Under the pieces are notes generated by a model. That model had not been told where the DNA came from, did no database searches, and saw only the letters and a list, made by a program, of their open reading frames with translations. A stretch of DNA of 34,544 nucleotides from an uncultured Planctomycetales bacterium (lineage in GTDB: Bacteria > 4484-113 > JAFGCY01): NCBI GenBank assembly GCA_964465955.1, contig CAYXMN010000002.1, positions 1 to 34,544 of the forward strand, read 5' to 3'. This document shows positions 1 to 30,361 of this stretch, piece after piece. A program made the translations under genes and the position numbers. Every line of letters starts with the position of its first letter. Within the stretch, counting starts at the first letter, position 1.

Positions 1-1427
1 AACAGCTCGACCTTCGCCACCGAGTTCGCGACGCCAAACAGCACGTAAGCTGCGTATTTACCGCTGCGGTCCGGATCCGGGGCAATCTCCACGTTTGAAG
101 CGCCAGCCAGCAAGTCTGCGCCGACGGACAGGTCGAACGGCGCTGGATACGGGCCGGGATTGAGCGACCAAGTAGCGGCGTCGAGCACGTACAGCTCGTC
201 GGTGTTGAAACTGAGGGCGAGCGCGTATTTGCCGTCGGGCGTGAAGGCGATATCGCTGGTGAAGGAGAATGACTCCGACAACACGATGGGGGCGTCGGCT
301 CCGCGGACGGCGGTTAAATCACGCAGATCCACCGCGTACAGCTGGGCTTCCAGCGAGCTGCAAATCAGTGCGTGATTGCCGTCGGGAGTCAGGGCGATCC
401 GGCCCGCGCCGACCAAGCCAAGCTCAAGTTGCCGCGGCTGGCTCGCGTCACCGCTCTGCCAGATGCGTTCGAGGTAGCTCGCGCTCTCCGCGTGCGGCTT
501 GTAATACTCATCGAACTGGATCGAACCACTTGTAACCACATACAGGCTGTTATGGCTGGGGTCGTAAGCGCCGAACTGCGGATTGAGGCCATAGGTGGGC
601 AGCTCGCCGTAGGAGCCGGTGGTTGTCTGAACCACTCCCACTATCCCCGGCGCATAAGTCGTGGGGGCGAAAGTGGCGATTTCGTTAAGGGGAATGTAAA
701 CCTTGCTGTCGAACACAACCGGCTTGCTCGGACCAATGAACGCAACGCCTGCGCCTTCCAGCAAATAATCCTGGCCAGCCAAGGGGGCCAGATTCCCGGC
801 CTCGAAACCTTGAACATGATTGCTGCCATTACTGACGACCCACAGTTTGTTATCGTCCAAGGCCAGGTAGCTGGGGCTGGCGCCGGCGGCGAAACTCGCG
901 GTGGCCAGCACGTTGCCGTCCAAGCTGTAGCGCACGGCGGTGTTATCCATGCTGTTCGCGACGAATAAGGAGTCGACGTCATCGACCTTGCCATAGGCCA
1001 TGTCATTCGGTCCGGCCCCGGTCGCGAATAACGGATTCGTGATGTGGTTCGCTGGGCTGTCCACGATGCAAGTGCTGCTCGCGGCGGCACCGTCTTTGGT
1101 ATAGGTGACCACCACTTGCTGGGCAGCGGGGGATAACACCGCGTCGAAGGCGAAACTGCCATCCAGCGCGGCGCTGCTTGATCCGGTCGCGCCGGCCGTG
1201 GCGGTCACGATGGTGCCGCCGTCGGCGCTGCCCGCCCCTGCGGCTATCCGCACTGCGGCTGTGCCATGAGCCACCGCGAAAACTTGAGCGGCCTCCGGCG
1301 GGCCGAGGGGCGCGTTGCCGCTGGTACCGCAGGCGGTTAAGGTAATTGAGGCAAGGAGGCAAACTGCGCCCCATGCCGAGTAAGCAGCGGCGCGCGATTT
1401 TACGCGCAGCGTTGTGTTAGCTGCCAT
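1..1427 (-). CDS. beta-propeller-repeat lipoprotein (N-terminus complete, C-terminal end beyond window edge)
   Basis: Frame is open from ATG (complement of 1425-1427) to position 1. It is absent from the ORF track because there is no stop in the window. N-terminus MAANTTLRVKSRAAAYSAWGAVCLLASITLTAC is a signal peptide plus lipobox. Repeated blades such as LTPDGNHALICSSLEAQLYAVDL and FTPDGKYALALSFNTDELYVLD resemble YVTN/lactonase-type beta-propellers. GC3 is high. GGAG lies upstream of the ATG. Confidence 0.6.
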   Translation of the reverse strand, partial: MAANTTLRVKSRAAAYSAWGAVCLLASITLTACGTSGNAPLGPPEAAQVFAVAHGTAAVRIAAGAGSADGGTIVTATAGATGSSSAALDGSFAFDAVLSPAAQQVVVTYTKDGAAASSTCIVDSPANHITNPLFATGAGPNDMAYGKVDDVDSLFVANSMDNTAVRYSLDGNVLATASFAAGASPSYLALDDNKLWVVSNGSNHVQGFEAGNLAPLAGQDYLLEGAGVAFIGPSKPVVFDSKVYIPLNEIATFAPTTYAPGIVGVVQTTTGSYGELPTYGLNPQFGAYDPSHNSLYVVTSGSIQFDEYYKPHAESASYLERIWQSGDASQPRQLELGLVGAGRIALTPDGNHALICSSLEAQLYAVDLRDLTAVRGADAPIVLSESFSFTSDIAFTPDGKYALALSFNTDELYVLDAATWSLNPGPYPAPFDLSVGADLLAGASNVEIAPDPDRSGKYAAYVLFGVANSVAKVEL

Positions 1428-5470: not shown

Positions 5471-5647
5471 GAGGCGGGCTTGAGCGACGAGGACTGCCCG
5501 GCGTCGAAAGACCGGTTGTTCGGCGAAGGCTGCAGCGCGGCCATAGGCGGCGAGGTCAGCCTGGATGTGCTGGCCGAGGGCTTCGAGAACAAGGACGCCA
5601 GCCCGGACGGAAGTGCGGGGGAAGGCGGAGCCGCAGGCGGCCAATAG
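5471..5647 (+). pseudogene. GC3-rich coding remnant (about 58 C-terminal codons of an unidentified gene)
   Basis: This frame (..EAGLSDEDCPASKDRLFGEGCSAAIGGEVSLDVLAEGFENKDASPDGSAGEGGAAGGQ*) has the strong G/C third-position bias of native genes. It is embedded in AT-rich DNA and lacks a credible start or RBS. Confidence 0.25.
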
Positions 5648-5656
5648 CCAACAGCT

Positions 5657-5664
5657 TGTATAAT
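5657..5664 (+). promoter_or_regulatory. extended -10 element TGTATAAT upstream of mrr
   Basis: TGnTATAAT-type element 27 nt upstream of the mrr ATG. Confidence 0.4.
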
Positions 5665-5690
5665 ACGGGTAACCATGTTGGGGGCTGTGA

Positions 5691-6596
5691 ATGGCGATAC
5701 CCGGTTACCAAAGCATCATGTTACCTTTGTTGCGCTTAACCGGCGACGGTGTGACCCGGCAGCTGCGTGATGCAATCGAACAACTCGCCAAAGAATTTGG
5801 ACTGACTGAAGAGGAACGCGGGGAGTTGCTACCCAGCGGACATCAAAGCACATTCGATAACCGCGTGGGCTGGGCCAGGACATATCTAAAGAAAGCTGGT
5901 TTGGTTGAGATGCCGAAGCGTGGGTACATCCAGATCACCCTGCGAGGCAAGACTACTCTTGATGAGAAACCAACAGAGATCAATGAAAAATACCTTCGGC
6001 AGTTTCCGGAGTTTGTTGACTTCAAGACTAGCAAACGTACAGTTGATGAGGAAACAGATTGCACTTTGTCGACCCAAAAGCAAACTCCTGAAGAACAGCT
6101 TGAGCTAGCACACCAAGTCCTGCGTGCTGAGTTGATCGATGAGCTGACCGCCGCGATCAAAGCCTGCTCCCCCAAGTTTTTCGAGCAACTTGTAGTTGAC
6201 TTGCTAGTAAAAATGGGTTACGGCGGATCACTGCGCGAGGCAGGCCAGGCCATTGGCAGATCTGGTGACGAAGGCATTGATGGCATCATTAAGGAAGACC
6301 GGCTGGGTCTCGATATCATCTATCTGCAAGCTAAGCGTTGGGAGAACGTTATCGGTAGGCCGGAGATTCAGAAATTCGCCGGGGCGCTGCAAGGCCAGCG
6401 TGCGCGCAAGGGAGTTTTCATAACAACATCCTCGTTCACAAGAGAAGCTAGGGAGTATGTTTCACTGATCGAGACAAAGATCATCTTGATCGATGGCAGC
6501 GATCTCGCTGAATACATGATCGATAACGGCGTGGGTGTGACCACCCACAGAGTATTTGAAGTGAAACTGATTGATAACGACTATTTTGAGGAGTAA
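5691..6596 (+). CDS. mrr: Mrr-family type IV (modification-dependent) restriction endonuclease
   Basis: N-terminal winged-helix Mrr_N-like region (MLPLLRL..GWARTYLKKAGL) plus the Mrr catalytic core (GDEGIDGII...LQAKRW...GVFITTSSFT). Confidence 0.9.
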   Translation: MAIPGYQSIMLPLLRLTGDGVTRQLRDAIEQLAKEFGLTEEERGELLPSGHQSTFDNRVGWARTYLKKAGLVEMPKRGYIQITLRGKTTLDEKPTEINEKYLRQFPEFVDFKTSKRTVDEETDCTLSTQKQTPEEQLELAHQVLRAELIDELTAAIKACSPKFFEQLVVDLLVKMGYGGSLREAGQAIGRSGDEGIDGIIKEDRLGLDIIYLQAKRWENVIGRPEIQKFAGALQGQRARKGVFITTSSFTREAREYVSLIETKIILIDGSDLAEYMIDNGVGVTTHRVFEVKLIDNDYFEE

Positions 6597-6610
6597 CTCT
6601 AGCTAGGGGA

Positions 6611-7579
6611 ATGATCATGAAGCAGTGGGTTGTCTTGGTGCTCGCTAGCCTATTTCTGCTGCTTGCGCTGCCTGCATTCGCCTATGTCCCGCATACCGGC
6701 GACCGCGCCGCACCGCTGAGCGGCCGCGACCTCAAGACCGACAGCGAGCTGAGCCTGGAAGACCTGCGCGGCAAGTGGGTGCTGTTGGACTTCTGGCATA
6801 TGTACTGCCCGTCCTGCCTGCGCGATCTGCCCGGTGTCTGCACGGCAGCCAAGCCGTACATGGCGGCAGGCGCGCTTGACGTTGTCCTGGTCAGCCTCGA
6901 TCAACCTGAGACAGCGGCAGCGATGAAGGAGTTCGTGGCCAGCCTGCCAATCGAACCGCATGTGATCTACTCAGGCGGCGGCCCGCTGCCCATCGGCCCG
7001 CCTGTGCTAGTCGCACCCGACTGGGACTCCTATGCGCCACAAGCCACGGAATGGGGCGTCTCCGGTGTTCCGGCATCATACCTGATCACACCAGACGGCA
7101 CCATCGCCGCCAAGCGCATCCGCCGGGATAACGTGGATGACTTGCTAGATTATTTCCTCGGACGAGGCGCGGCTTACGCGCCAATCGCGCTCCGCACGAG
7201 CGTTAGTTACAGCGATGACGCGCAAGTCAATGTCATGATCGAAGCAGCCAGCGCCAGCCACGCCCCGTTGCAAGCGCGGATCACCTATCGCCTGGAACGT
7301 GTGGCGTATAAAGAATACGAGGGCTGCCTGATCCAGGATCGCGGCACTAGAGAATATACAGACTGGGTCACGAGCGAGCTGTGCCTCATGTTCAGCGAGT
7401 TCAGCGACGCGGTGCAGCCGTGCTTGATTGATGCCAGCGGCTACCAAGGCCTGCAATACCGCGTTGAGGTGCTGCTGCCAGGCAGCGGGCGCTATAAGGA
7501 TGGTGCGGGCTTGTGGCTACGGCAATACGGGGACCTGGACTTTGCACTAGACTGGCTGGGCGGCGAGTCCGCGAATTAG
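6611..7579 (+). CDS. secreted TlpA/redoxin-family thiol-disulfide oxidoreductase with an unknown C-terminal domain of about 170 aa
   Basis: Signal peptide (LLLALPAFA). Thioredoxin-fold motif KWVLLDFWHMYCPSCLRDLP. GVPASYLITPDGTI cis-Pro loop region. Confidence 0.8.
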   Translation: MIMKQWVVLVLASLFLLLALPAFAYVPHTGDRAAPLSGRDLKTDSELSLEDLRGKWVLLDFWHMYCPSCLRDLPGVCTAAKPYMAAGALDVVLVSLDQPETAAAMKEFVASLPIEPHVIYSGGGPLPIGPPVLVAPDWDSYAPQATEWGVSGVPASYLITPDGTIAAKRIRRDNVDDLLDYFLGRGAAYAPIALRTSVSYSDDAQVNVMIEAASASHAPLQARITYRLERVAYKEYEGCLIQDRGTREYTDWVTSELCLMFSEFSDAVQPCLIDASGYQGLQYRVEVLLPGSGRYKDGAGLWLRQYGDLDFALDWLGGESAN

Positions 7580-7680
7580 CCGCGGGGGCGCCAGCGCCAC
7601 CACTCGCCGCAGCGTAAGCTAGCAGTTGCGCTTGCTGCGGAAATAGTCATGGGCAGCATCATCCTCGCGGATTCCCGCAG

Positions 7681-7716
7681 AAAAAAGGGGCGAAGCATTA
7701 GCTCCGCCCCTGAGTT
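7681..7716 (-). terminator. intrinsic terminator after the aldehyde dehydrogenase gene (possibly bidirectional)
   Basis: Hairpin GGGGCGAAGC-ATTA-GCTCCGCCCC (7687-7710). It is flanked by A6 on the plus strand, which is a U-run for the minus transcript, and by GAGTTTTCT on the other side. Confidence 0.6.
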
Positions 7717-7738
7717 TTCTCCAGTTATGCCCGCGGCT

Positions 7739-9328
7739 TTACTCCCCGAACTTGATGCCCTGGGCTAATGGCAGCTCGGTGGTGTAGTTGATCGTGTTGG
7801 TCTGGCGGCGCATGTACGCCTTCCAGCTGTCCGAGCCGCTCTCGCGCCCGCCGCCGGTCTCCTTCTCGCCGCCGAACGCGCCGCCGATTTCCGCGCCGCT
7901 CGTGCCGATGTTGACGTTGGCGATGCCGCAGTCGCTGCCCGCCGCGGAGAGGAAGCGCTCGGCCTCCAGCAGGTTTTGTGTGAAGATCGCGCTCGACAGG
8001 CCCTGGGGCACGCCGTTATGCAGCGCGATGGCTTCGTCCAGCGTGTTGTACTTGATCAGGTACAGAATGCAGGAGAAGGTCTCATCCTGGACGATTTGGT
8101 AGTGGTTCTCCGCCTCGGCGATGCACGGCGTCACATAGCAGCCGCCGGGGTAGTTCTCGCCGCTGAGGCGCTCGCCGCCGCAGAGAATCTTGCCGCCTTC
8201 CTGCTTCACCTTCTCCACCGCCGCCATCAAGTCGTCCACCGCGCCGGTATTGACCAGCGGCCCCATCAGCGTCTTAGCGTCCAGCGGATCGCCGATGGGC
8301 ACCGTGCTATACGCCTTCACCAGCCGGTCGCGCAGCTCGTCATACTTGCTCGCGTGCACGATGATGCGCCGGGTCGAGGTGCAGCGCTGGCCCGCCGTGC
8401 CGACCGCGCCGAACAGGATCGCGCGTAGCGCAATGTCGAGATCGGCGTGCTCGCTGACGATAATCGCGTTGTTGCCGCCCAGCTCCAGGATGGTGCGGCC
8501 CAGGCGCTGGCCGACGATGCTGCCCACGCGGTAGCCCATGCTGCACGAACCGGTCGCGCTGATCAGCGGCACGCGCTTGTCATGCAACATCCGCTCGCCG
8601 ACGGCACTGCCTTTGCCGATCACGAGGCTCGCCAGCGCCGGGTCGTAGCCGTTGCGCTCGAACACGCGCGCGGCGATCTTGGTGCAGGCGATGGCCGTCA
8701 GCGGCGTCTGGCTGGAGGGCTTCCACAGCACGGCGTCCCCGCAAACCCAGGCCAGCGCGGCGTTCCAGCTCCAGACCGCCACCGGGAAGTTGAACGCGGA
8801 GATCACGCCGACCACGCCCAGCGGGTGCCACTGCTCGCACATACGGTGGCCGGGGCGCTCGGACGGCATGGTGAAGCCGTAGAGCTGGCGCGACAGGCCC
8901 ACGGCAAAGTCGCAGATGTCGATCATCTCCTGCACTTCGCCCTCGCCCTCGGCGCGAATCTTGCCCATTTCGAGCGTGACCAGCGCGCCCAGCGCCTTCT
9001 TATAGCGCCGCAGCTCCTCGCCGAGCTGGCGCACCACCTCGCCGCGCTTGGGGGCGGGCACCGTGCGCCATTTCAGGAATGCCTCATGCGCGCGGGCGCA
9101 GACGCGGTCGTATTCCTCCGCCGTGGCCTGGCGCACCGAGCCGATCTGCGAGCCGTCGATGGGCGTCGAGACGTTCAGCACGTCGCCGCTGCCGAACCAT
9201 TCGCCGCAGAACGCGCCGGCGTGATCGGGCTTGAGGCCGAGCGATTCGAACAGCACCGCCTGGTCGACATCCTTCTTGATGCCGCTGATGGCGCTCTCCA
9301 ACTGCGCCATGATCTCCTTGAATTCCAT
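7739..9328 (-). CDS. ALDH7-type aldehyde dehydrogenase (alpha-aminoadipic semialdehyde / piperideine-6-carboxylate dehydrogenase-like)
   Basis: ALDH superfamily motifs ELGGNNAIIV and GTAGQRCTSTRR. The N-terminal region (GEWFGSGDVLNVSTPIDG) is typical of the ALDH7/AmaB/Pcd group. GGGAGGAAGG RBS precedes ATG 9328 (MEFKEIM). Confidence 0.9.
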   Translation of the reverse strand: MEFKEIMAQLESAISGIKKDVDQAVLFESLGLKPDHAGAFCGEWFGSGDVLNVSTPIDGSQIGSVRQATAEEYDRVCARAHEAFLKWRTVPAPKRGEVVRQLGEELRRYKKALGALVTLEMGKIRAEGEGEVQEMIDICDFAVGLSRQLYGFTMPSERPGHRMCEQWHPLGVVGVISAFNFPVAVWSWNAALAWVCGDAVLWKPSSQTPLTAIACTKIAARVFERNGYDPALASLVIGKGSAVGERMLHDKRVPLISATGSCSMGYRVGSIVGQRLGRTILELGGNNAIIVSEHADLDIALRAILFGAVGTAGQRCTSTRRIIVHASKYDELRDRLVKAYSTVPIGDPLDAKTLMGPLVNTGAVDDLMAAVEKVKQEGGKILCGGERLSGENYPGGCYVTPCIAEAENHYQIVQDETFSCILYLIKYNTLDEAIALHNGVPQGLSSAIFTQNLLEAERFLSAAGSDCGIANVNIGTSGAEIGGAFGGEKETGGGRESGSDSWKAYMRRQTNTINYTTELPLAQGIKFGE

Positions 9329-22827: not shown

Positions 22828-22983
22828 CGCGCAGTTGCATTACACCCCGGCGCCAGGGATCTGCCGGCACCGCAACCTTCCGCTGAGTGCTGCTGCCTTC
22901 CGGCCCTGACACGGTTCACGGCGTTTGCGCGCAGCAGGCCCGGCGCGCGGGGCTTGCGTAGATTTTAGCATGGCCGGAGGCGG

Positions 22984-23904: not shown

Positions 23905-24039
23905 GGCTTTCCTCGTCAGCATGGCTTCACAAGTACCCGATGCGCGCATTATCGCAGATGTTCAGGGAAACGAACATCAACTCTGTGTTGCGACAGTAGT
24001 TGCCATTTGTGAATTGTGTATGTTGTTAGATGTATGCCG

Positions 24040-24068
24040 TTGACATCGTTTTCTTTTTGCGGTAGACT
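24040..24068 (+). promoter_or_regulatory. sigma70 promoter TTGACA-N17-TAGACT for the island genes
   Basis: Hexamers at 24040-24045 and 24063-24068, about 28 nt upstream of ATG 24096. Confidence 0.45.
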
Positions 24069-24095
24069 ATCTTCATCTAAGAGTGTGAGGACACC

Positions 24096-25013
24096 ATGAG
24101 ACTGCTACTCCTATCAGCCTGCTTAGGCAGCGCCTTGCTTTTTATGTCTTGTGACAATGTCGTGAAAAGCGATCAGCATGCTAGCTCATCACCTGTACAA
24201 CTTCGACTTGCCAGTTATAACATCCAAGATGCAAATGCCGAGGGTAATCCCTTTGCTGAGCAGTACACAGAAATCGACGACTGGATGTTTGAGAATTTCC
24301 AGCAAGCGACCTCATCTAGTGGCGGGTTAATCCTTAACATTACAAAAGAACAGAAGATGCTGAAGTGCCCTGTGAACGAGGATGGATTCAAACTGCCATA
24401 TCGTGATTCGTTGGTTATGGTGGAGGAAGCCAGGAAGAATGGTGACGAGACATTAGGTATTCAAGGATATACTTTTTTCTATGCTGCGGGAGAAATGCCA
24501 GACGAGATCACTGCTATGGTTCGAGAAATGAATTCCGAGGTATTGGCCGAATACTATCCCGTAGTTCCATTATGGCTTGCTGAAGCAGAATACGATAGTG
24601 CTGCGATGTGTCCAAATGGTGATATTCTCACGATGGGGCCAGTTGAGATTGGGACTATTGAAACCAAAGAGGATGCTGATGAAAAGACGACCAAAGAAGG
24701 TGGTTGTTGTGGCGGATCGTTTAATGCTAAGACATTTTATCGCTACAATGCGGATGGGGTTCTAATCAGCGCAGATAAGAGCTGGATTTTTACATTTGAC
24801 GATTTTTCCCCTGAGAAGCTGGCATCGCCAAACATGACCGTAAGATTGGACGGTGTAGTAACTTTCACTGGTGACGATGGAAATATTGTTGCGGTATATG
24901 ATTATGATTGGACTGAGTTGGGAACTAGTTTGCCTCCGATGAGGGATCTGCATTATTTCATGTTCTACCCAAAGTCGACCCTCGATCAGGTATATCACTG
25001 CCAACAAAGTTAG
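24096..25013 (+). CDS. lipoprotein of unknown function (island gene 1)
   Basis: Signal peptide plus lipobox LLFMSC. AT-rich codon usage unlike the backbone. No recognisable domain. Confidence 0.7.
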   Translation: MRLLLLSACLGSALLFMSCDNVVKSDQHASSSPVQLRLASYNIQDANAEGNPFAEQYTEIDDWMFENFQQATSSSGGLILNITKEQKMLKCPVNEDGFKLPYRDSLVMVEEARKNGDETLGIQGYTFFYAAGEMPDEITAMVREMNSEVLAEYYPVVPLWLAEAEYDSAAMCPNGDILTMGPVEIGTIETKEDADEKTTKEGGCCGGSFNAKTFYRYNADGVLISADKSWIFTFDDFSPEKLASPNMTVRLDGVVTFTGDDGNIVAVYDYDWTELGTSLPPMRDLHYFMFYPKSTLDQVYHCQQS

Positions 25014-25069
25014 AGTTGTTCTGGTGGACAGGGTGCTGGTGACTAACGTGTAGTAAAGGAGATCATGAG

Positions 25070-25594
25070 TTGAATAAGAGAATCCACTTATCAATGTACT
25101 TAGTACTGGTGTGTGTGCTCATTACATGTGTGGCGCATGCAGGTGAGAAAGCGGTGGGATGTTTCGCTTATCAGCAGTCGATTACCGTGGCTGGACCTCA
25201 GACACCATATGAACCATGTCAGACTGATGGTGGTTATTGTATCGACGTGCTAAGTTGTTTAGAGCCTTTGGATTATGATAGAGTATGTTTTCAAGCTCAG
25301 CAGTATACGTTTTTCATTTGGGAGTGTTATGCTGTATTCGGGAATACTTACCATAATATAGATTGCGGTAAAAGTATGGTGGTATCAAATCAGGTTGTCG
25401 GAAACGGCGAACGTGTGGCACAGATTTGTGATCCGAATGAATTATGTGCATTTGCTAATCTCCCAGATGTTGGTCCAAGTGATATAGTAGACGAATGGAT
25501 CAATGGTATGAGAGTAGTATTTGATACATTTACCATCACATGTGATTGCGAAGCGGGAGAATGTGTATCAAGCCAAAGCTCATCGGAAAGCTAA
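25070..25594 (+). CDS. secreted Cys-rich protein (12 Cys in the mature part), unknown function (island gene 2)
   Basis: Signal peptide LVLVCVLITCVAHA. AAGGAG lies upstream. TTG 25070 or ATG 25094 could be the start. Confidence 0.65.
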   Translation: MNKRIHLSMYLVLVCVLITCVAHAGEKAVGCFAYQQSITVAGPQTPYEPCQTDGGYCIDVLSCLEPLDYDRVCFQAQQYTFFIWECYAVFGNTYHNIDCGKSMVVSNQVVGNGERVAQICDPNELCAFANLPDVGPSDIVDEWINGMRVVFDTFTITCDCEAGECVSSQSSSES

Positions 25595-25640
25595 TTGAAA
25601 TCGACATTTGTTTGAATTGAAATTGAAGTTCTTAACTATG

Positions 25641-25675
25641 CGCTAGGAGGATAAGGCAATCTTGGCCTCCTAGCG
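25641..25675 (+). terminator. perfect 10-bp inverted repeat (CGCTAGGAGG..CCTCCTAGCG) downstream of the island genes
   Basis: Stem 25641-25650 / 25666-25675 with a 15-nt loop, followed by a T-rich tract (TATTGCATATT). This is not a canonical U-run. Confidence 0.4.
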
Positions 25676-26070
25676 TATTGCATATTAGCGTAATGTGTAA
25701 ATCGAGAACTAAAGATGTATTGCTCCTGATTGCACTGCGGCTCGATCGCGGCTAGTGCCTGGGGGCGGACTGCGCCCGGGCAGGGTTAAGGTACATATCC
25801 GCCGGGTCTTCCTTGATGGGGGTGAACCCGCCGCGGTGGATCTCCCGCAGCTTCCGGCTGGTTAAACTAACCACCGCCACGCCAAAGCGAAAACAGCCAA
25901 GCAGATCACATGCAGCACGAGGACATTCCTGTCAACCCCGGCTGCTTGCTTTCCACCGCCGCCATAGCCTGGGAGATAAATGAGAATAGTAGTTATGAAT
26001 AAGGATATGGTATATGAGCATGGCGATGACTAAGAAATTATTCGGACATCCGAAATCAACCTTGCTAATA

Positions 26071-26099
26071 TTGCAAAACCCGTTAGGATATGTTACAAT
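26071..26099 (+). promoter_or_regulatory. sigma70 promoter TTGCAA-N17-TACAAT upstream of the NfeD-like/flotillin cluster
   Basis: Hexamers at 26071-26076 and 26094-26099. This predicts a leader of about 295 nt before ATG 26400. Confidence 0.5.
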
Positions 26100-26399
26100 T
26101 GCTGCGGTGACTAAAATGTTAGTCTAACGGAACAATTGCTAGGGCTGCTGAGAGCGGCCCTGGTGCGCGTAATAGAGAAACCGCGCGATTTACCCAGTTT
26201 TCTTCTTCAACATTCCCAAGGTTTACCAAAGCCAAGCCGCTTGCGGCAGGGCCAATCCCGGGTTATGGCCACACCGCGACGGCGGGTGCGCGGTCCGCCG
26301 CGGGCGGTAGAATTAAGCTGGGACGAAACGTAGCCCGGTTGGAACCTAACAGCCGGGACAACCAGCGGCGAACCGCTGGACGCAAGCAAGGAGCGCGAG

Positions 26400-27188
26400 A
26401 TGGCTGCGCTGACAACAGTGTATTGGCTGTGTTTCGGCTTCGGCCTGGTCTATGTCGTCGTGTCGGCGACGCTCGGCGCGATCGGCCATGGGCTGGCGAA
26501 TGTGGGCGGGCAGGATGTTGACGCCTCCGGGCATGACTTCGATGCCAGCGGCCACGATTTCGACGCCTCAGGCCACGACTTCGACGCCTCAGGGCACGAT
26601 TTCGACGCGGCTGGGCATGACGTGGACGCGGGAGGCGCTGGCAGCGGCGAGCTGGCCAGTGCGGACCTCTCCACGGACAGCACCGGCCTGGAGGCTGGAG
26701 CCACGGACGAAACGGCGGCGGGCCACGCCGGGCAGAGCGGCCATGGCGCGCAGTACGACACCCACGTCATGCCGTCGTTCAGCCCGTTTTCACCGCTGAG
26801 CATCGCGGGATTCCTCGCGGCATTCGGCGGCGCGGGCCTGGCGGCGACTGCCACGCAGCTCAATCCGCTGGCTACTCTCGGCATTGCCGCGGGCGGCGGG
26901 ATCGTGATGGGCTACTTGCTCTACTTGCTGATCGGCAAGCTGCTGTTCTCCATGCAGGGCAGCTCCGAAGCGCACCAAGCCGATATGCTCGGCCTGGATG
27001 CGGAGGTGCTGACTCCGGTGGAACATGAGCTTAGCGGCGAGATTGCCTATGTTCTGGAAGGCACGCGCTATACCGCCCCGGCGCGCCTGGCAAGCGCGGG
27101 GCGCGTCGAGAAGCGGGAGAACGTGCGGATTAAGGCCGTGCAGGGAAACATCGTGTACGTGGAGCAGAAACGCAAGTTACTAGAGTAA
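26400..27188 (+). CDS. NfeD/YqiJ-like membrane protein with a His/Asp heptad repeat loop
   Basis: N-terminal TM segment, five DASGHDF repeats, two further TM segments, and a C-terminal NfeD-type OB-fold region (GEIAYVLEGTRYTAPARL...VRIKAVQGNIVYVE). AAGGAG RBS. A flotillin gene lies downstream, as in yqiJK-type pairs. Confidence 0.8.
   Translation: MAALTTVYWLCFGFGLVYVVVSATLGAIGHGLANVGGQDVDASGHDFDASGHDFDASGHDFDASGHDFDAAGHDVDAGGAGSGELASADLSTDSTGLEAGATDETAAGHAGQSGHGAQYDTHVMPSFSPFSPLSIAGFLAAFGGAGLAATATQLNPLATLGIAAGGGIVMGYLLYLLIGKLLFSMQGSSEAHQADMLGLDAEVLTPVEHELSGEIAYVLEGTRYTAPARLASAGRVEKRENVRIKAVQGNIVYVEQKRKLLE
26520..26624 (+). repeat. five tandem 21-nt coding repeats (DASGHDF x4 plus DAAGHDV)
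   Basis: Units at 26520, 26541, 26562, 26583 and 26604. Synonymous differences between units indicate selection at the protein level. Confidence 0.9.
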
Positions 27189-27241
27189 CCGCAGCATGCG
27201 CAGGTTATTAATCCGGTTACTCCATGTCTAGGTGGTTAGTG

Positions 27242-27943
27242 ATGGCGATTTACGATGATTTCTCCAGCGGGCAACTCGACCCTGAGCGCTGGGCTAAGGG
27301 TGAAATGTGGGATGGCGCTAAGCTGGTTTGGCGCTGGATTGATCCAGGCTTGCGGACTGAAGTCAACTCGGGACGGTTGACATTAGCGGTGGAGCGCTAC
27401 AGCTTGAGCCATGCTGCGGTGCAGATTTTCGACAATCCGAAGGCGTTGTACTTAAGCACGCGGGCTTGGCCCATCGGCGAGCGGCCCGTGAAGTTCAGCT
27501 GCACCCTGGCGGCGGACTGCACCGGCGATTTGGACGACATTCGCAACGGTTTCGCGAGTTTCAATGTGCTCGATTTCGCGACAGGCACAGTGATGGATAT
27601 TGTGGCTAACGGCCGCAAGGTATGGTCCATTACCGAACGGCTCGACATCCCTGGTGTGGCGGAGCCGCCCGCGCCCTTCTCGGACTACTGCGACTTGAAC
27701 GTTGCCAGCTCTCCGGGGCAGGAGCACGAGGTGGCTGTGCTGTATAACCCGCAGGCCGGGGAGGTGAGCTACCAGGTTGACGGCGAGGTGCGCCAGCAGC
27801 GCTCTCTGCCCACCCGGCCCGCCAGCTTGACGCTGGGCATGGGGCTGATCACGTTGTATCCCATCGAGCATGGGCGCTCCGTGAGCTGCCGGGGCCAGGG
27901 TGGCCTGGGGCTGTGGGGCCGGATCGCGAGCGAAGAACTTTAA
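27242..27943 (+). CDS. hypothetical cytoplasmic protein (233 aa) between the NfeD-like and ArsR genes
   Basis: AGGTGG RBS 6 nt before ATG 27242. High GC3. No signal peptide and no motif I can name. Confidence 0.7.
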   Translation: MAIYDDFSSGQLDPERWAKGEMWDGAKLVWRWIDPGLRTEVNSGRLTLAVERYSLSHAAVQIFDNPKALYLSTRAWPIGERPVKFSCTLAADCTGDLDDIRNGFASFNVLDFATGTVMDIVANGRKVWSITERLDIPGVAEPPAPFSDYCDLNVASSPGQEHEVAVLYNPQAGEVSYQVDGEVRQQRSLPTRPASLTLGMGLITLYPIEHGRSVSCRGQGGLGLWGRIASEEL

Positions 27944-28018
27944 TGGCTAGAAGCGCCGGCCCCGGACGGGAGGGAACTGGGGTGGCGGCAAGGGCTGGGC
28001 AGCGCCCCGGCCAGACGA

Positions 28019-28062
28019 TTGCACCTTGACATGGATTCTGTTATACTTCGACACATGTCGAA
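28019..28062 (+). promoter_or_regulatory. promoter TTGCAC-N17-TATACT plus 7-2-7 palindrome TTCGACA-ca-TGTCGAA overlapping the arsR-like start
   Basis: -35 at 28019-28024 and -10 at 28042-28047. The palindrome at 28047-28062 spans the predicted TSS and ATG 28055. No SD is present, so the transcript is probably leaderless and autoregulated. Confidence 0.45.
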
Positions 28063-28378
28063 TTATCGAACCGAAGATGTTGAACGGCTGGCAGAAGTGT
28101 TCAAGTGCTTGGGCAACCGCCACCGTTTGCGAATTCTGATCGAGCTCGCCGCCTGCTGCAAGCCGGACGCGGCTTGTTGCGGGGGGGCGGGATCGCGCAG
28201 GGTAGGCGAGCTCGCCGAGGGCCAGGAGCTGGCGGCTAGCACGGTATCGCACCACATCAAGGAACTGAACCGCGCGGGATTGATGTGCTGCGCCAAACAT
28301 GGCAAGCAGACGCTGTGCTGCGTTGACCAAGGCGTGCTGGCGGAACTCCGGGAGTTCTTCAATGGCCTTGCCCGCTGA
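28055..28378 (+). CDS. ArsR/SmtB-family metalloregulator with four vicinal Cys-Cys pairs
   Basis: FKCLGNRHRLRILIEL ... STVSHHIKELNRAGL winged-helix core. CC pairs occur in AACCKPDAACCGG (an insertion at the alpha3 position) and in LMCCAKHGKQTLCCV (wing). Confidence 0.85.
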   Translation: MSNYRTEDVERLAEVFKCLGNRHRLRILIELAACCKPDAACCGGAGSRRVGELAEGQELAASTVSHHIKELNRAGLMCCAKHGKQTLCCVDQGVLAELREFFNGLAR

Positions 28379-28418
28379 CCCGGTTCGAGACGGCAGAGAC
28401 TATGTCAAGGAGTACGAG

Positions 28419-28574
28419 ATGTGTAGTAGTGAACAAGGCCACAGCGGCCAGTGCGGCAGCAAGACCTTTTCCTGGCAGTGCGACTGCGGATGCAACATGA
28501 CCGTGACGGTATCCTGCGACTGCAGCGGGCACGAAGGCCAGGACAAGGAAGGGAAGTGCTGCGGCGGTAAATAG
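28419..28574 (+). CDS. 51-aa Cys-rich protein (9 Cys, 2 His), metallothionein-like candidate
   Basis: AAGGAG RBS 6 nt upstream of ATG 28419. Sequence is MCSSEQGHSGQCGSKTFSWQCDCGCNMTVTVSCDCSGHEGQDKEGKCCGGK. It lies immediately downstream of the ArsR-family gene. Confidence 0.6.
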   Translation: MCSSEQGHSGQCGSKTFSWQCDCGCNMTVTVSCDCSGHEGQDKEGKCCGGK

Positions 28575-28722
28575 CCGCCGGAGCACGGGGGGGATTCGAC
28601 CCCCGGCCCTGCCGTGAGGTGCGCTGGGCTTAATCGGAGAATGCTTGACCTAGCGTATAATGCCACGCAGGATTCGGCGGAGGCATTCGGGGCCGGGGGA
28701 CCGGCAAAGGAGCGGAAGAAAG

Positions 28723-30285
28723 ATGGATTTACTGTATGCAATCGCGCTGCCGATGGCGCAACTCAAACCACCCAGCACGACAACCATCGTGTTCATCATG
28801 GTCGGCGTCGCCGTCCTTTTTATCATTCTCGGCATTTGGGCCAGCCGCTTCACCAAGGTGCCGCCCAACACCGTGATGGTGATCTCCGGCGGCAGCGGCC
28901 AGACCATCCGCCGGACGGACGGCACCCGCACGAAGCTGGGCTTCCGCATTATCAAGGGCGGCGGCACGTTCGTCCTGCCGATCCTGGAACGCGTCGATCT
29001 CCTGAGCCTGGAGCTAATGACCATCGATGTGAAGACGCCTGAGGTCTACACCCTGCAAGGCGTGCCGGTGATGGTGGACGGCGTGGCGCAGATCAAGGTG
29101 AAAAGCGACGACGTCTCGATCGCGACCGCCGTCGAGCAGTTCTTAAGCAAGTCCACCGTGGACATCATGAATGTGGCGCAACAGACGCTGGAAGGCCACC
29201 TGCGCGCGATCATGGGCACGATGAACGTCGAGGAGATCTACCGCAACCGCGACGCCTTCGCCCAGCGCGTGCAGGACATCGCGGCGACGGACTTAGCCAA
29301 CATGGGCCTCGCCATCATCTCGTTTACCATCCGCGACGTGCGCGACAACGAGGGCTATCTCGACGCCCTGGGCAAGAAGCGCACCGCCGAAGTGAAGCGC
29401 GACGCGCGCATCGGCGAGGCGGAGGCGGAGCGCGACGCGACGATCAAGGCCGCATCGTTCCGCCAGGAAGGCGAGACGGCGAAGTTTGAGGCCGAGACGA
29501 AGATCGCCGCCAGCAATCGCGACTACGAGATTCAGGTGGCTAATTACACCAAGTCGGTCAACAAGGAAAAGGCCGAGGCGGACTTGTCCTACGACCTGCA
29601 AAAGAACCTTTCCTTGCGCCAGGTGCGCGAGAACGAGGTCGAGGTCGAGATTGTGGAGAAGAACAAGCGCATCGAACTGGAGCAGCTCGAAATCCAGCGC
29701 AAGCAGAAGGAGCTGGAGGCGACGATCCAGCGCCCGGCGGACGCCAAGAAGTACGAGACCGAGCGCCACGCCGAGGCGGAGCGTTTCCGGCTGGAGAACG
29801 TGGCGGAGGGCGAGTCGCGCAGCCGCAAGCTGACCGGCTTCGCTGAGGCCGAGGTCGTCCAGGCCAAGGGTAATGCGGAGGCCGAAGCGGTGAAGGCCAA
29901 GGGTCTCGCGGAAGCGGAGATCATCCGCCAGAAGGGTCTCTCGGAAGCGGCGGGGTCGATGGAAAAGGCTAAAGCCTGGCAGGAGTACAACGAGGCGGCC
30001 ATCGCGCAGCTGCTCATCGAGAAGCTGCCGGAGATCGCCCGCGCCATCGCCGAGCCGATGGCCCGCATCCAGAGCATCACCATCGTAGACTCAGGCGGCC
30101 AGGCCGGGACTGGCGCGCACAAGATCACGCAGGATATCGGCAAGGTGCTGGCGGAGCTGCCGCCGGTGGTCGAAGCGCGCAGCGGCGTGGACTTGAAGCA
30201 GTTGATCCAGATGCTGCCGGACATCGCGGCCAACGCGGCGCACAAAAAGAGCGCGCCGGCGGATGACGGCGGCAAGGTGAAGTAA
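28723..30285 (+). CDS. flotillin-family (SPFH domain) membrane protein, YqiK/FloT-like
   Basis: N-terminal TM segment, SPFH domain (VMVDGVAQIKVKSDD...MGLAIISFTIRDVRD), and Glu/Ala-rich coiled-coil flotillin repeats (AEAERDA.., AEAEAVKAKGLAEAE). Confidence 0.9.
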   Translation: MDLLYAIALPMAQLKPPSTTTIVFIMVGVAVLFIILGIWASRFTKVPPNTVMVISGGSGQTIRRTDGTRTKLGFRIIKGGGTFVLPILERVDLLSLELMTIDVKTPEVYTLQGVPVMVDGVAQIKVKSDDVSIATAVEQFLSKSTVDIMNVAQQTLEGHLRAIMGTMNVEEIYRNRDAFAQRVQDIAATDLANMGLAIISFTIRDVRDNEGYLDALGKKRTAEVKRDARIGEAEAERDATIKAASFRQEGETAKFEAETKIAASNRDYEIQVANYTKSVNKEKAEADLSYDLQKNLSLRQVRENEVEVEIVEKNKRIELEQLEIQRKQKELEATIQRPADAKKYETERHAEAERFRLENVAEGESRSRKLTGFAEAEVVQAKGNAEAEAVKAKGLAEAEIIRQKGLSEAAGSMEKAKAWQEYNEAAIAQLLIEKLPEIARAIAEPMARIQSITIVDSGGQAGTGAHKITQDIGKVLAELPPVVEARSGVDLKQLIQMLPDIAANAAHKKSAPADDGGKVK

Positions 30286-30311
30286 GGAGAACGCATCTCA
30301 CTCGCAAATCA

Positions 30312-30345
30312 AGCCGGGGGCCCACGCGGCCTCCGGCTTTTTTTA
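30312..30345 (+). terminator. intrinsic terminator after the flotillin gene
   Basis: Long GC stem AGCCGGGGGCC..GGCCTCCGGCT followed by TTTTTTT. Confidence 0.8.
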
Positions 30346-30361
30346 TTCTGGAGGGGCGCGT

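Follow-up and report, generated by a model that had tools for sequence, protein, structure and literature searches.

A 34,544-nucleotide stretch of DNA from an uncultured Planctomycetales bacterium (contig CAYXMN010000002.1 of assembly GCA_964465955.1; hereafter the window) carries an nfeD-like gene and a flotillin gene (floT) separated by three further genes, which encode a DUF6081 protein, an ArsR/SmtB-family repressor (ArsR) and a 51-amino-acid (aa) Cys-rich protein that we call mini. We consider it probable that arsR and mini form an autonomous cassette, lodged in a permissive spacer of a separately promoted nfeD-floT pair and lying beside an accessory DUF6081 gene, and that the link to flotillin is positional. 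Gene content, indel pattern, conserved promoter and operator architecture, and the cargo of this ArsR family are established directly. An earlier interpretation of the same DNA, called here the sequence-only reading, had placed the five genes correctly (all were recovered on the + strand, at the proposed coordinates, in the open reading frame (ORF) listing) and had grouped them into an integrated module of sensor, chelator and scaffold. That grouping is largely unsupported, given the little conservation of the arrangement in relatives and the seemingly independent transcription units to which the genes belong.

The strongest evidence comes from gene order in related genomes. The complete order NfeD-DUF6081-ArsR-mini-flotillin was found in the window, and a near-identical short contig (L001) spans only the end of NfeD to the start of mini. 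Two relatives have NfeD-ArsR-mini-flotillin without DUF6081 (L002, with ArsR 86% and flotillin 90% identical; L030, with ArsR 84% identical). The converse arrangement, with DUF6081 directly before flotillin and neither ArsR nor mini, is present in L111, whose flotillin (91.5% identical) is about as near as that of any relative found, and the P0094 contig likewise holds the tail of NfeD, DUF6081 and flotillin without ArsR or mini. NfeD abuts flotillin in L007 and L008 (flotillin 79-83% identical) and in about 18 Chloroflexi loci. Elsewhere the gap is filled by other genes: two paralogous proteins of about 455 aa and of no known family in L009 and L010 (flotillin 74-75% identical), and a URO-D-family gene in L012. 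The paralogues, located at 2984-5762 of L009 and at the same place in L010, have signal-peptide-like N-termini and match no Pfam family.

When the spacers are aligned, the window differs from L111 by a clean indel of about 625 bp, which corresponds to arsR-mini. The L111 spacer between DUF6081 and floT matches the window up to ...GCGCCCCnGCCAnA and picks up again at ACCTAGCGTATAATGCC. By gene order and spacer alignment, DUF6081 and arsR-mini are two independent accessory elements. Because inserts are present or absent in all combinations, and unrelated genes occupy the gap elsewhere, we view the nfeD-floT spacer as an insertion hotspot. A chance insertion had been judged the less likely origin of the arrangement; the data favour an insertion, as the gap inserts vary independently among close relatives and the cassette is a clean indel. 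The recurrence of ArsR and the Cys-rich ORF between NfeD and flotillin, proposed as a comparative check, is seen in L002 and L030 and stays within one very narrow clade, in which ArsR identity is 84% or more. In a scan of Joint Genome Institute (JGI) metagenomes, neither flotillin nor NfeD lay beside any of 80 ArsR homologues, and no nearer ArsR relatives were found, the maximum identity being 53%.

The control regions also point to separate units. A single strong promoter had been thought to flank the cluster. The element at 26071 is probably real, but it is not the sole promoter: the cluster contains two more conserved elements that resemble promoters, at 28019-28047 before arsR and at about 28648-28663 before floT. 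No Shine-Dalgarno (SD) sequence is found upstream of arsR, and in the window, L002 and L030 the -10 box lies 7 nt before the ATG, so the arsR mRNA is predicted to be leaderless. The putative operator, an inverted repeat with an 11-2-11 layout, overlaps both the -10 box and arsR codons 1-4, and we infer that arsR is leaderless and autorepressed. The same layout was found among distant members of the family, represented by 79 unique promoter regions of ArsR homologues 40-53% identical to that of the window (from 80 metagenome contigs, L031-L110, and three other loci, L003-L005). TTGAC at -40 to -26 and TAnnnT at -13 to -8 each occur in 63 of the 79, the overall geometry TTGACA-17-TATAnT-7-ATG is likewise found in 63/79, and TTCGA (-8 to -4) occurs together with TCGAA (+4 to +8) in 57/79. 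The N-terminus MSNY (ATG TCG AAY TAT) is common to the subfamily because the inverted repeat spans the start codon. A literature text search, judged by titles, returned no paper concerned with this ArsR subfamily, and its leaderless layout with an operator over the start codon may be undescribed so far. A search of the window and of the 20-kb L002 locus placed the exact operator core at the arsR start only; the one match with a single mismatch, at window 510-525, is within chance expectation, and the core search of these two sequences gave no second operator near the nfeD or floT promoters.

The floT promoter region, with the element ACCTAGCGTATAATGCC, is invariant among the window, L002 and L030; the promoter element recurs in L111 and in the insertion-free L007, so it predates the cassette. 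Upstream, a terminator scan between mini and floT found nothing, and the two GC-rich hairpins at the end of mini are not a canonical terminator because they have no U-tract; read-through into floT is therefore conceivable. The 5' untranslated region (UTR) of floT contains an element, GGCATTCGGGnCCGGGG...CCnGG, that is shared with L007 and L008. Its hairpins AATGCC...GGCATT and GCCGG...CCGGC (L007 5925-5998; L008 5540-5617) persist in L008 without the TATAAT box and may be an RNA stability or translation element. For nfeD, a consensus scan puts the 26071-26099 promoter at chance level (1 found against 1.5 expected); the same element, ATATTGCAa...TAGnATATGTTAnAnT, precedes nfeD in L002, L007 and L008, so the promoter is probably genuine. 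The leader that follows, of about 300 nt (window 26100-26399; L002 8680-8976), is kept between the window and L002 and differs in length in L007 and L008. A riboswitch was considered for this leader and rejected, the Rfam scan giving no RNA family there or elsewhere in the cluster. The strong terminator proposed past floT was recovered at 30311-30339, with a stem of 12 pairs, a T-run and a fold z of -2.8.

The repressor itself is assigned to its family by Pfam HTH_5 (26.8 bits against a cut-off of 22) and by the NCBIfam metalloregulator ArsR/SmtB model (E 2e-12); against NCBIfam HTH_metalloreg it scores 46.7 bits, under the cut-off of 55. The 107-aa product of the ATG start is the one on record, and a 119-aa TTG start, which has no exact protein match, was rejected. 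An SdpR-SdpI-like or toxin-antitoxin reading was also rejected (SdpR match 29 bits, cut-off 100). The AlphaFold2 (AF2) model, with a predicted local distance difference test score (pLDDT) of 80, shows the canonical alpha1-alpha5 fold plus wing (H-H-H-H-E-E-H), and Foldseek matched it to CzrA, CgArsR and SmtB with probability 1.00 and a template-modelling (TM) score of about 0.7. Among solved structures, its sequence comes nearest to CgArsR of Corynebacterium (6j0e), an As(III)-responsive regulator, and then to CzrA.

The four Cys-Cys pairs noted in the sequence-only reading are confirmed. The alpha2-alpha3 loop has a 9-residue insertion that contains pairs 34-35 and 41-42; pairs 78-79 and 88-89 lie on both wing strands, and Cys18 completes the set. 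The canonical R773-type CVC/ELCVCDL motif is missing from alpha3, which contains no Cys at all (RRVGELAE). In ArsD, AfArsR and CgArsR, vicinal CC pairs typify the As(III) sites. Across the subfamily Cys35 and Cys88 are invariant and Cys34 nearly so; of 55 members, 41 have Cys41 and 48 have a CVG Cys where alpha3 begins. The window ArsR shares with this subfamily MSNY, Cys34-Cys35, Cys88, the leaderless promoter and the TTCGA-N6-TCGAA operator, and its clade also carries Cys42 and Cys89. From these sequence features it would be a thiophilic metal(loid) sensor, with As(III) as the leading candidate.

The genes downstream of related arsR genes place the subfamily in a chemical context. ArsM is the cargo in 34/54 loci (NF008823, 351-360 bits against a cut-off of 263), a C_GCAxxG_C_C protein in 6/54, and HgcA (443 bits, L039) or a DsbD_TM/CdhD/ferredoxin set in a few. 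Vicinal CC motifs occur in 44 of the 54 cargo proteins, and mini has the same CC theme. The cargo of the window cassette is not arsM, hgcAB or a related CC-motif protein; that place is taken by a 51-aa orphan. ArsR-like regulators beside hgcAB and arsM have been described, one of them As-responsive (bioRxiv 10.1101/2022.10.17.512643; PMC7438021), with Cys residues on a beta strand and in the coil that follows helix 2 (bioRxiv 10.1101/2022.10.17.512643). As a separate observation, a protein of about 200-240 aa recurs as the first gene after arsR (L033, L035, L047, L056, L068, L087, L005), with an N-terminal CC...CC followed by a transmembrane segment; an NCBIfam scan of three copies (L033, L047, L005) gave no match, and this cargo looks like an uncharacterised family under the ArsR subfamily.

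The 51-aa ORF, with 9 Cys and 2 His, is as originally described. We take mini to be a real gene since its SD is conserved and its Cys core is invariant among orthologues. The three orthologues are 57-78% identical and share the core TF..CDCGCN.TVTVSCDC...EGKCCGGK, while the linkers vary; Cys makes up 17.6% of residues, and all Cys positions are kept save Cys12. Metallothioneins as a functional class are small, have at least 15% Cys and coordinate several metal ions in thiolate clusters; for mini, metal binding is a prediction. Beyond these orthologues mini stands alone. A word search over 5.8e9 proteins recovered the known orthologues only, and a profile search of 1.84e9 representatives returned two known orthologues and long Ig-like repeat proteins, with no other small homologue. 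The Ig-like matches, to FTYT...ATVTVTV strands, were judged compositional or structural mimicry and not homology. No family was found for mini in Pfam, NCBIfam or the PDB, and even at E <= 10 Pfam and NCBIfam gave no match bar a weak one to MymT; no match to SmtA/BmtA-type metallothioneins turned up in Pfam, NCBIfam or PDB sequences. The resemblance to MymT amounts to a pairwise BLASTP E of 2e-4 over 15 aa and an hhalign value of 73.6% over 26 columns, using a MymT sequence that scored 87 bits on the NCBIfam MymT model (cut-off 80). We do not place mini in the MymT family because it reaches 7 bits on that model; the resemblance is at the level of motifs. A precursor of a ribosomally synthesized and post-translationally modified peptide (RiPP) was considered and rejected, no maturase lying nearby. 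By analogy with SmtA under SmtB, mini is most likely a metallothionein-like thiolate buffer or chaperone. We favour this role because of its composition, the conservation of its Cys residues and the location of its gene after that of an ArsR/SmtB repressor.

A unifying model based on these data starts from an old nfeD-floT pair, each gene with its own conserved promoter, in whose spacer the cassette and DUF6081 would have been gained, or from which they would have been lost, independently within a narrow planctomycete lineage. The arsR gene would be transcribed without a leader, the -10 box and start codon lying inside the 11-2-11 inverted repeat. An ArsR dimer is predicted to bind this repeat and to repress its own bicistronic arsR-mini transcript, until a thiophilic metal(loid), bound by the vicinal Cys pairs of the alpha2-alpha3 loop and the beta-wing, would release the repressor. 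As(III) is the most likely ligand, and the soft metals Cd, Hg or Cu(I) are possible. With its 9 thiolates the induced peptide may then buffer the metal(loid) or pass it on, in the manner of SmtA under SmtB. Repression, inducer and metal binding by the peptide are all steps that we infer. Read-through from the induced arsR promoter would be at most an addition to floT transcription.

Several observations weigh against this model. Every cassette copy found sits in the nfeD-floT gap and none elsewhere; the cassette is therefore not demonstrably mobile. Some co-expression of floT with the cassette is possible because no canonical terminator separates mini from floT. The window clade has lost the CVG Cys and gained the CC at 78-79, which is found in this clade alone, and with the Cys set so altered its ligand may differ from that of the ArsM-linked relatives. 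Finally, mini has no statistically supported homologue, its best NCBIfam score (MymT, NF052418) being 7 bits with E 5.4 against a cut-off of 80, and its AF2 model is poor (pLDDT 58), with a beta-hairpin (residues 13-20 and 26-33) and disordered ends. As far as that model can be read, a hairpin with disordered ends would suit a thiolate protein in its metal-free (apo) state.

The confinement of the cassette to one gap and the lack of a canonical mini-floT terminator would also fit a single co-regulated, metal(loid)-responsive membrane-microdomain module of all five genes, with ArsR as sensor, the peptide as chelator, the NfeD His/Asp loop as a metal-binding site and flotillin as scaffold. The shared strand, the short gaps, the one strong terminator after floT and the repeated NfeD-ArsR-mini-flotillin order in L002 and L030 agree with it as well. 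We nevertheless hold such a module to be very unlikely. L111, with its flotillin at 91.5% identity, and P0094 have neither ArsR nor mini, and NfeD is next to flotillin in L007, L008 and Chloroflexi; the nfeD, arsR and floT promoters are separate and conserved, with no operator by the nfeD or floT promoter; His/Asp repeats are present, and longer, in NfeD orthologues without ArsR; and unrelated genes fill the same gap in other lineages. What survives of the earlier proposal is the pairing of ArsR and the Cys-rich ORF as a plausible metal(loid) sensor and thiolate protein; the tie to a flotillin scaffold does not. A more ambitious version, in which mini founds a new ArsR-controlled metallothionein-like family (beta-hairpin CDCGC...CDC...CC), metal(loid)-induced read-through makes flotillin metal-responsive in this lineage, a nascent link of metal stress to membrane microdomains, and the spacer acts as a 'cargo slot' that takes in client genes, strikes us as quite unlikely.

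Two further alternatives concern what the cassette does. The ArsR fold also matches SqrR, BigR and HlyU, the clade has a Cys set of its own, of unusual size (9 Cys) and with the CVG Cys lost, and part of the family cargo is of redox type (C_GCAxxG_C_C, DsbD_TM), all of which would suit a sensor of thiol or redox stress whose vicinal Cys residues form disulfides or persulfides, as in BigR, SqrR and HlyU, with the peptide as a sacrificial thiol or redox buffer. We regard this as unlikely, given that the family cargo is mostly ArsM or HgcA, that is, metal(loid) chemistry, that vicinal CC pairs typify the As(III) sites named above, and that CgArsR, the closest in sequence among solved structures, responds to As(III). 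It is highly improbable, in our estimate, that the 51-aa product is not a chelator and acts instead as a regulatory partner of ArsR (as anti-repressor or as metal donor), as a structural mini-protein built on the beta-hairpin, or as a precursor peptide. As an orphan of no family, with the hairpin as its sole confident structure and profile matches to strands of Ig-like repeat proteins, mini could be accommodated in this way; its Cys content, the retention of all Cys positions except Cys12 among varying linkers, and the lack of a maturase, radical-SAM gene or transporter nearby speak against it, and its place downstream of an ArsR/SmtB repressor mirrors SmtB-SmtA. The autonomous arsR-mini cassette remains the reading that we prefer.

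The flanking genes can be described independently of the cassette. The NfeD-like protein scores 19.6 bits against the Pfam NfeD C-terminal domain, under the cut-off of 29.1. In more than 20 loci of Planctomycetes-like and Chloroflexi metagenome-assembled genomes (MAGs), flotillin is directly preceded by an orthologue of this protein, and because this synteny is kept we consider its description as an NfeD-like flotillin partner fair despite the sub-threshold score. The His/Asp heptads attributed to this protein are present; their proposed part in a metal-sensor module is not borne out, as longer arrays occur in relatives without ArsR. Such orthologues carry longer DHDFD arrays in L007 and L008, and HDISHDVDH in Chloroflexi. 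We interpret the loop as an ancestral, variable trait and not as an adaptation to the sensor, since orthologues from genomes without the cassette have it too.

The 233-aa gene that had been labelled unknown is indeed present, and it belongs to a named family, DUF6081 (PF19559, 100 bits against a gathering score of 25.9); all 64 of 64 homologues carry PF19559. DUF6081 occurs without ArsR and mini in L111 and P0094 and is missing from L002 and L030. A 61%-identical copy in L112 and L113 (5001-5693) sits among a NAGPA-domain protein, DUF488 and PPK2, and because this neighbourhood is unrelated, DUF6081 is not tied to flotillin or ArsR. No relative was found for it among solved structures, and the sole literature mention found concerns ActVA-3/NcnN-type oxidases in Streptomyces. 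Flotillin scores over the Pfam cut-offs for both Band_7 (117.6 bits) and Flot (41.2 bits). Its 488.6 bits on NCBIfam FloT fall short of the cut-off of 700, so it does not count as an equivalog of B. subtilis FloT. In L008 a second match to the flotillin N-terminus (5600-6193, 39% identity) precedes the main match at 6437-7909 and could be a duplicated or fragmented SPFH gene.

Features of the nfeD-floT cluster in the window (nt positions; TM1, first transmembrane segment; TRF, Tandem Repeats Finder)
Feature	Position	Strand	Evidence or remark
nfeD promoter, TTGCAA-17-TACAAT plus TG extension	26071-26099	+	consensus scan; conserved
NfeD-like membrane protein, 262 aa	26400-27188	+	flotillin partner by synteny; outside the cassette
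21-nt tandem repeat encoding DASGHDF His/Asp heptads, loop after TM1	26520-26629	+	TRF, 5.2 copies
DUF6081 protein, 233 aa	27242-27943	+	Pfam E 1.8e-28; independent accessory insertion
arsR-mini cassette	28016-28640 (+/- 30 bp)	+	indel vs L111
arsR promoter: -35 TTGCAC (28019-28024), 17-nt spacer, extended -10 TGTTATACT (-10 at 28042-28047)	28019-28047	+	window, L002, L030
Putative ArsR operator, inverted repeat ATACTTCGACA-ca-TGTCGAATTAT	28043-28066	+	11-nt arms, 91% complementary
ArsR/SmtB-family repressor, 107 aa, 9 Cys	28055-28378	+	Pfam, NCBIfam
SD AAGGAG of mini	28407-28412	+	6-7 nt before ATG in window, L002, L030
Orphan Cys-rich protein (mini), 51 aa, 9 Cys and 2 His	28419-28574	+	three orthologues
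Two GC-rich hairpins over and past mini stop codon	28556-28605	+	repeat search, folds
floT promoter region ACCTAGCGTATAATGC, -10 TATAAT at 28656-28661	28648-28663	+	invariant in window, L002, L030
floT 5' UTR, conserved hairpins and SD AAGGAG	28664-28722	+	alignment
Flotillin (SPFH/Band_7 and Flot domains)	28723-30285	+	Pfam 8.2e-34 and 2.1e-10
Intrinsic terminator after floT	30311-30346	+	12-bp stem, 9 GC pairs, then T-run; fold z = -2.8

The DNA around the cluster is ordinary chromosome, with DnaB, PurD, H+-PPase and a signal recognition particle (SRP) RNA, and the closest named relatives are 'uncultured Planctomycetales' MAGs. A tRNA scan found none, and a tRNA-linked island was rejected for that reason. 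Elsewhere in the window we noted a cobalamin riboswitch (1438-1605, - strand, 95 bits), the bacterial small SRP RNA (22848-22945, - strand, 63 bits) and a Mrr-type restriction endonuclease gene (5691-6596) in a stretch of lower GC (about 0.53). Directly upstream of the nfeD promoter lies a low-GC island (23950-26000, GC 0.44 against about 0.63), probably horizontally acquired, with two Cys-rich ORFs (24096-25013, with a lipoprotein-like signal, and 25070-25594) that match neither Pfam nor NCBIfam; the corresponding position in L002 is occupied by CstA.

Bacterial metallothioneins form a very short list (SmtA/BmtA, MymT and few others); if the peptide binds metal(loid)s, that list would gain a new sequence family, the first one tied to the ArsM/HgcA-linked branch of ArsR. 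The clade-specific reshuffling of sensor Cys residues into four vicinal pairs offers a natural experiment in the re-wiring of ArsR ligand sites. The most reusable by-product of our work is that about 80 regulators of arsenic- and mercury-methylation genes share one layout, which provides a concrete, testable operator. For flotillin biology the outcome is mostly negative, the juxtaposition being a lineage-specific insertion and not a conserved functional coupling.

Compared with known nfeD-flotillin operons, B. subtilis yuaF-floT and E. coli yqiJ-yqiK, the pair described here keeps the same order in more than 20 loci of two phyla: a gene for a short NfeD-like membrane protein comes right before an SPFH/flotillin gene. 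It differs in that the spacer of the planctomycete clade is repeatedly filled by unrelated genes, in that floT has its own promoter, and in that the NfeD match is sub-threshold with a variable His/Asp-rich loop. Among repressors, the window ArsR is 40-53% identical to the ArsM/HgcA-linked subfamily, a comparison that for ArsR2 of Pseudodesulfovibrio mercurii ND132 was made by description. It is like these regulators in MSNY, Cys34/35/88 and the promoter/operator layout, and unlike them in that its clade has no CVG Cys and carries the extra CC pairs 41-42, 78-79 and 88-89, and in that the cargo is an orphan Cys-peptide and not a methyltransferase.

The cassette resembles SmtB-SmtA of Synechococcus PCC 7942 and BxmR-BmtA, in which an ArsR/SmtB repressor controls a bacterial metallothionein; in the cassette too, a repressor of this fold stands beside a small Cys/His-rich protein. 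Its putative operator has imperfect inverted arms around a 2-nt centre, as do the SmtB and CzrA sites (12-2-12). Here, however, the genes are co-directional and probably bicistronic, not divergent as in SmtB-SmtA; the mRNA is seemingly leaderless, and the operator reaches into the coding part of arsR; the sensor Cys residues lie in the alpha2-alpha3 loop and wing and not in alpha3N or alpha5; and mini has, by Pfam and NCBIfam, no similarity to the zinc-finger-like fold of SmtA and BmtA. The mycobacterial Cu(I) metallothionein MymT is like mini in size and in its C-x-C...CGC-x7-CxC-x8-12-CCG pattern, although the profile search with mini over 1.84e9 proteins brought up no MymT-like protein; MymT is under the control of the CsoR-type RicR and not of an ArsR. 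Relative to the known theme of an ArsR/SmtB repressor with a metallothionein, what is new is the orphan peptide, the arrangement of sensor Cys residues and the leaderless layout with its operator extending into the coding sequence.

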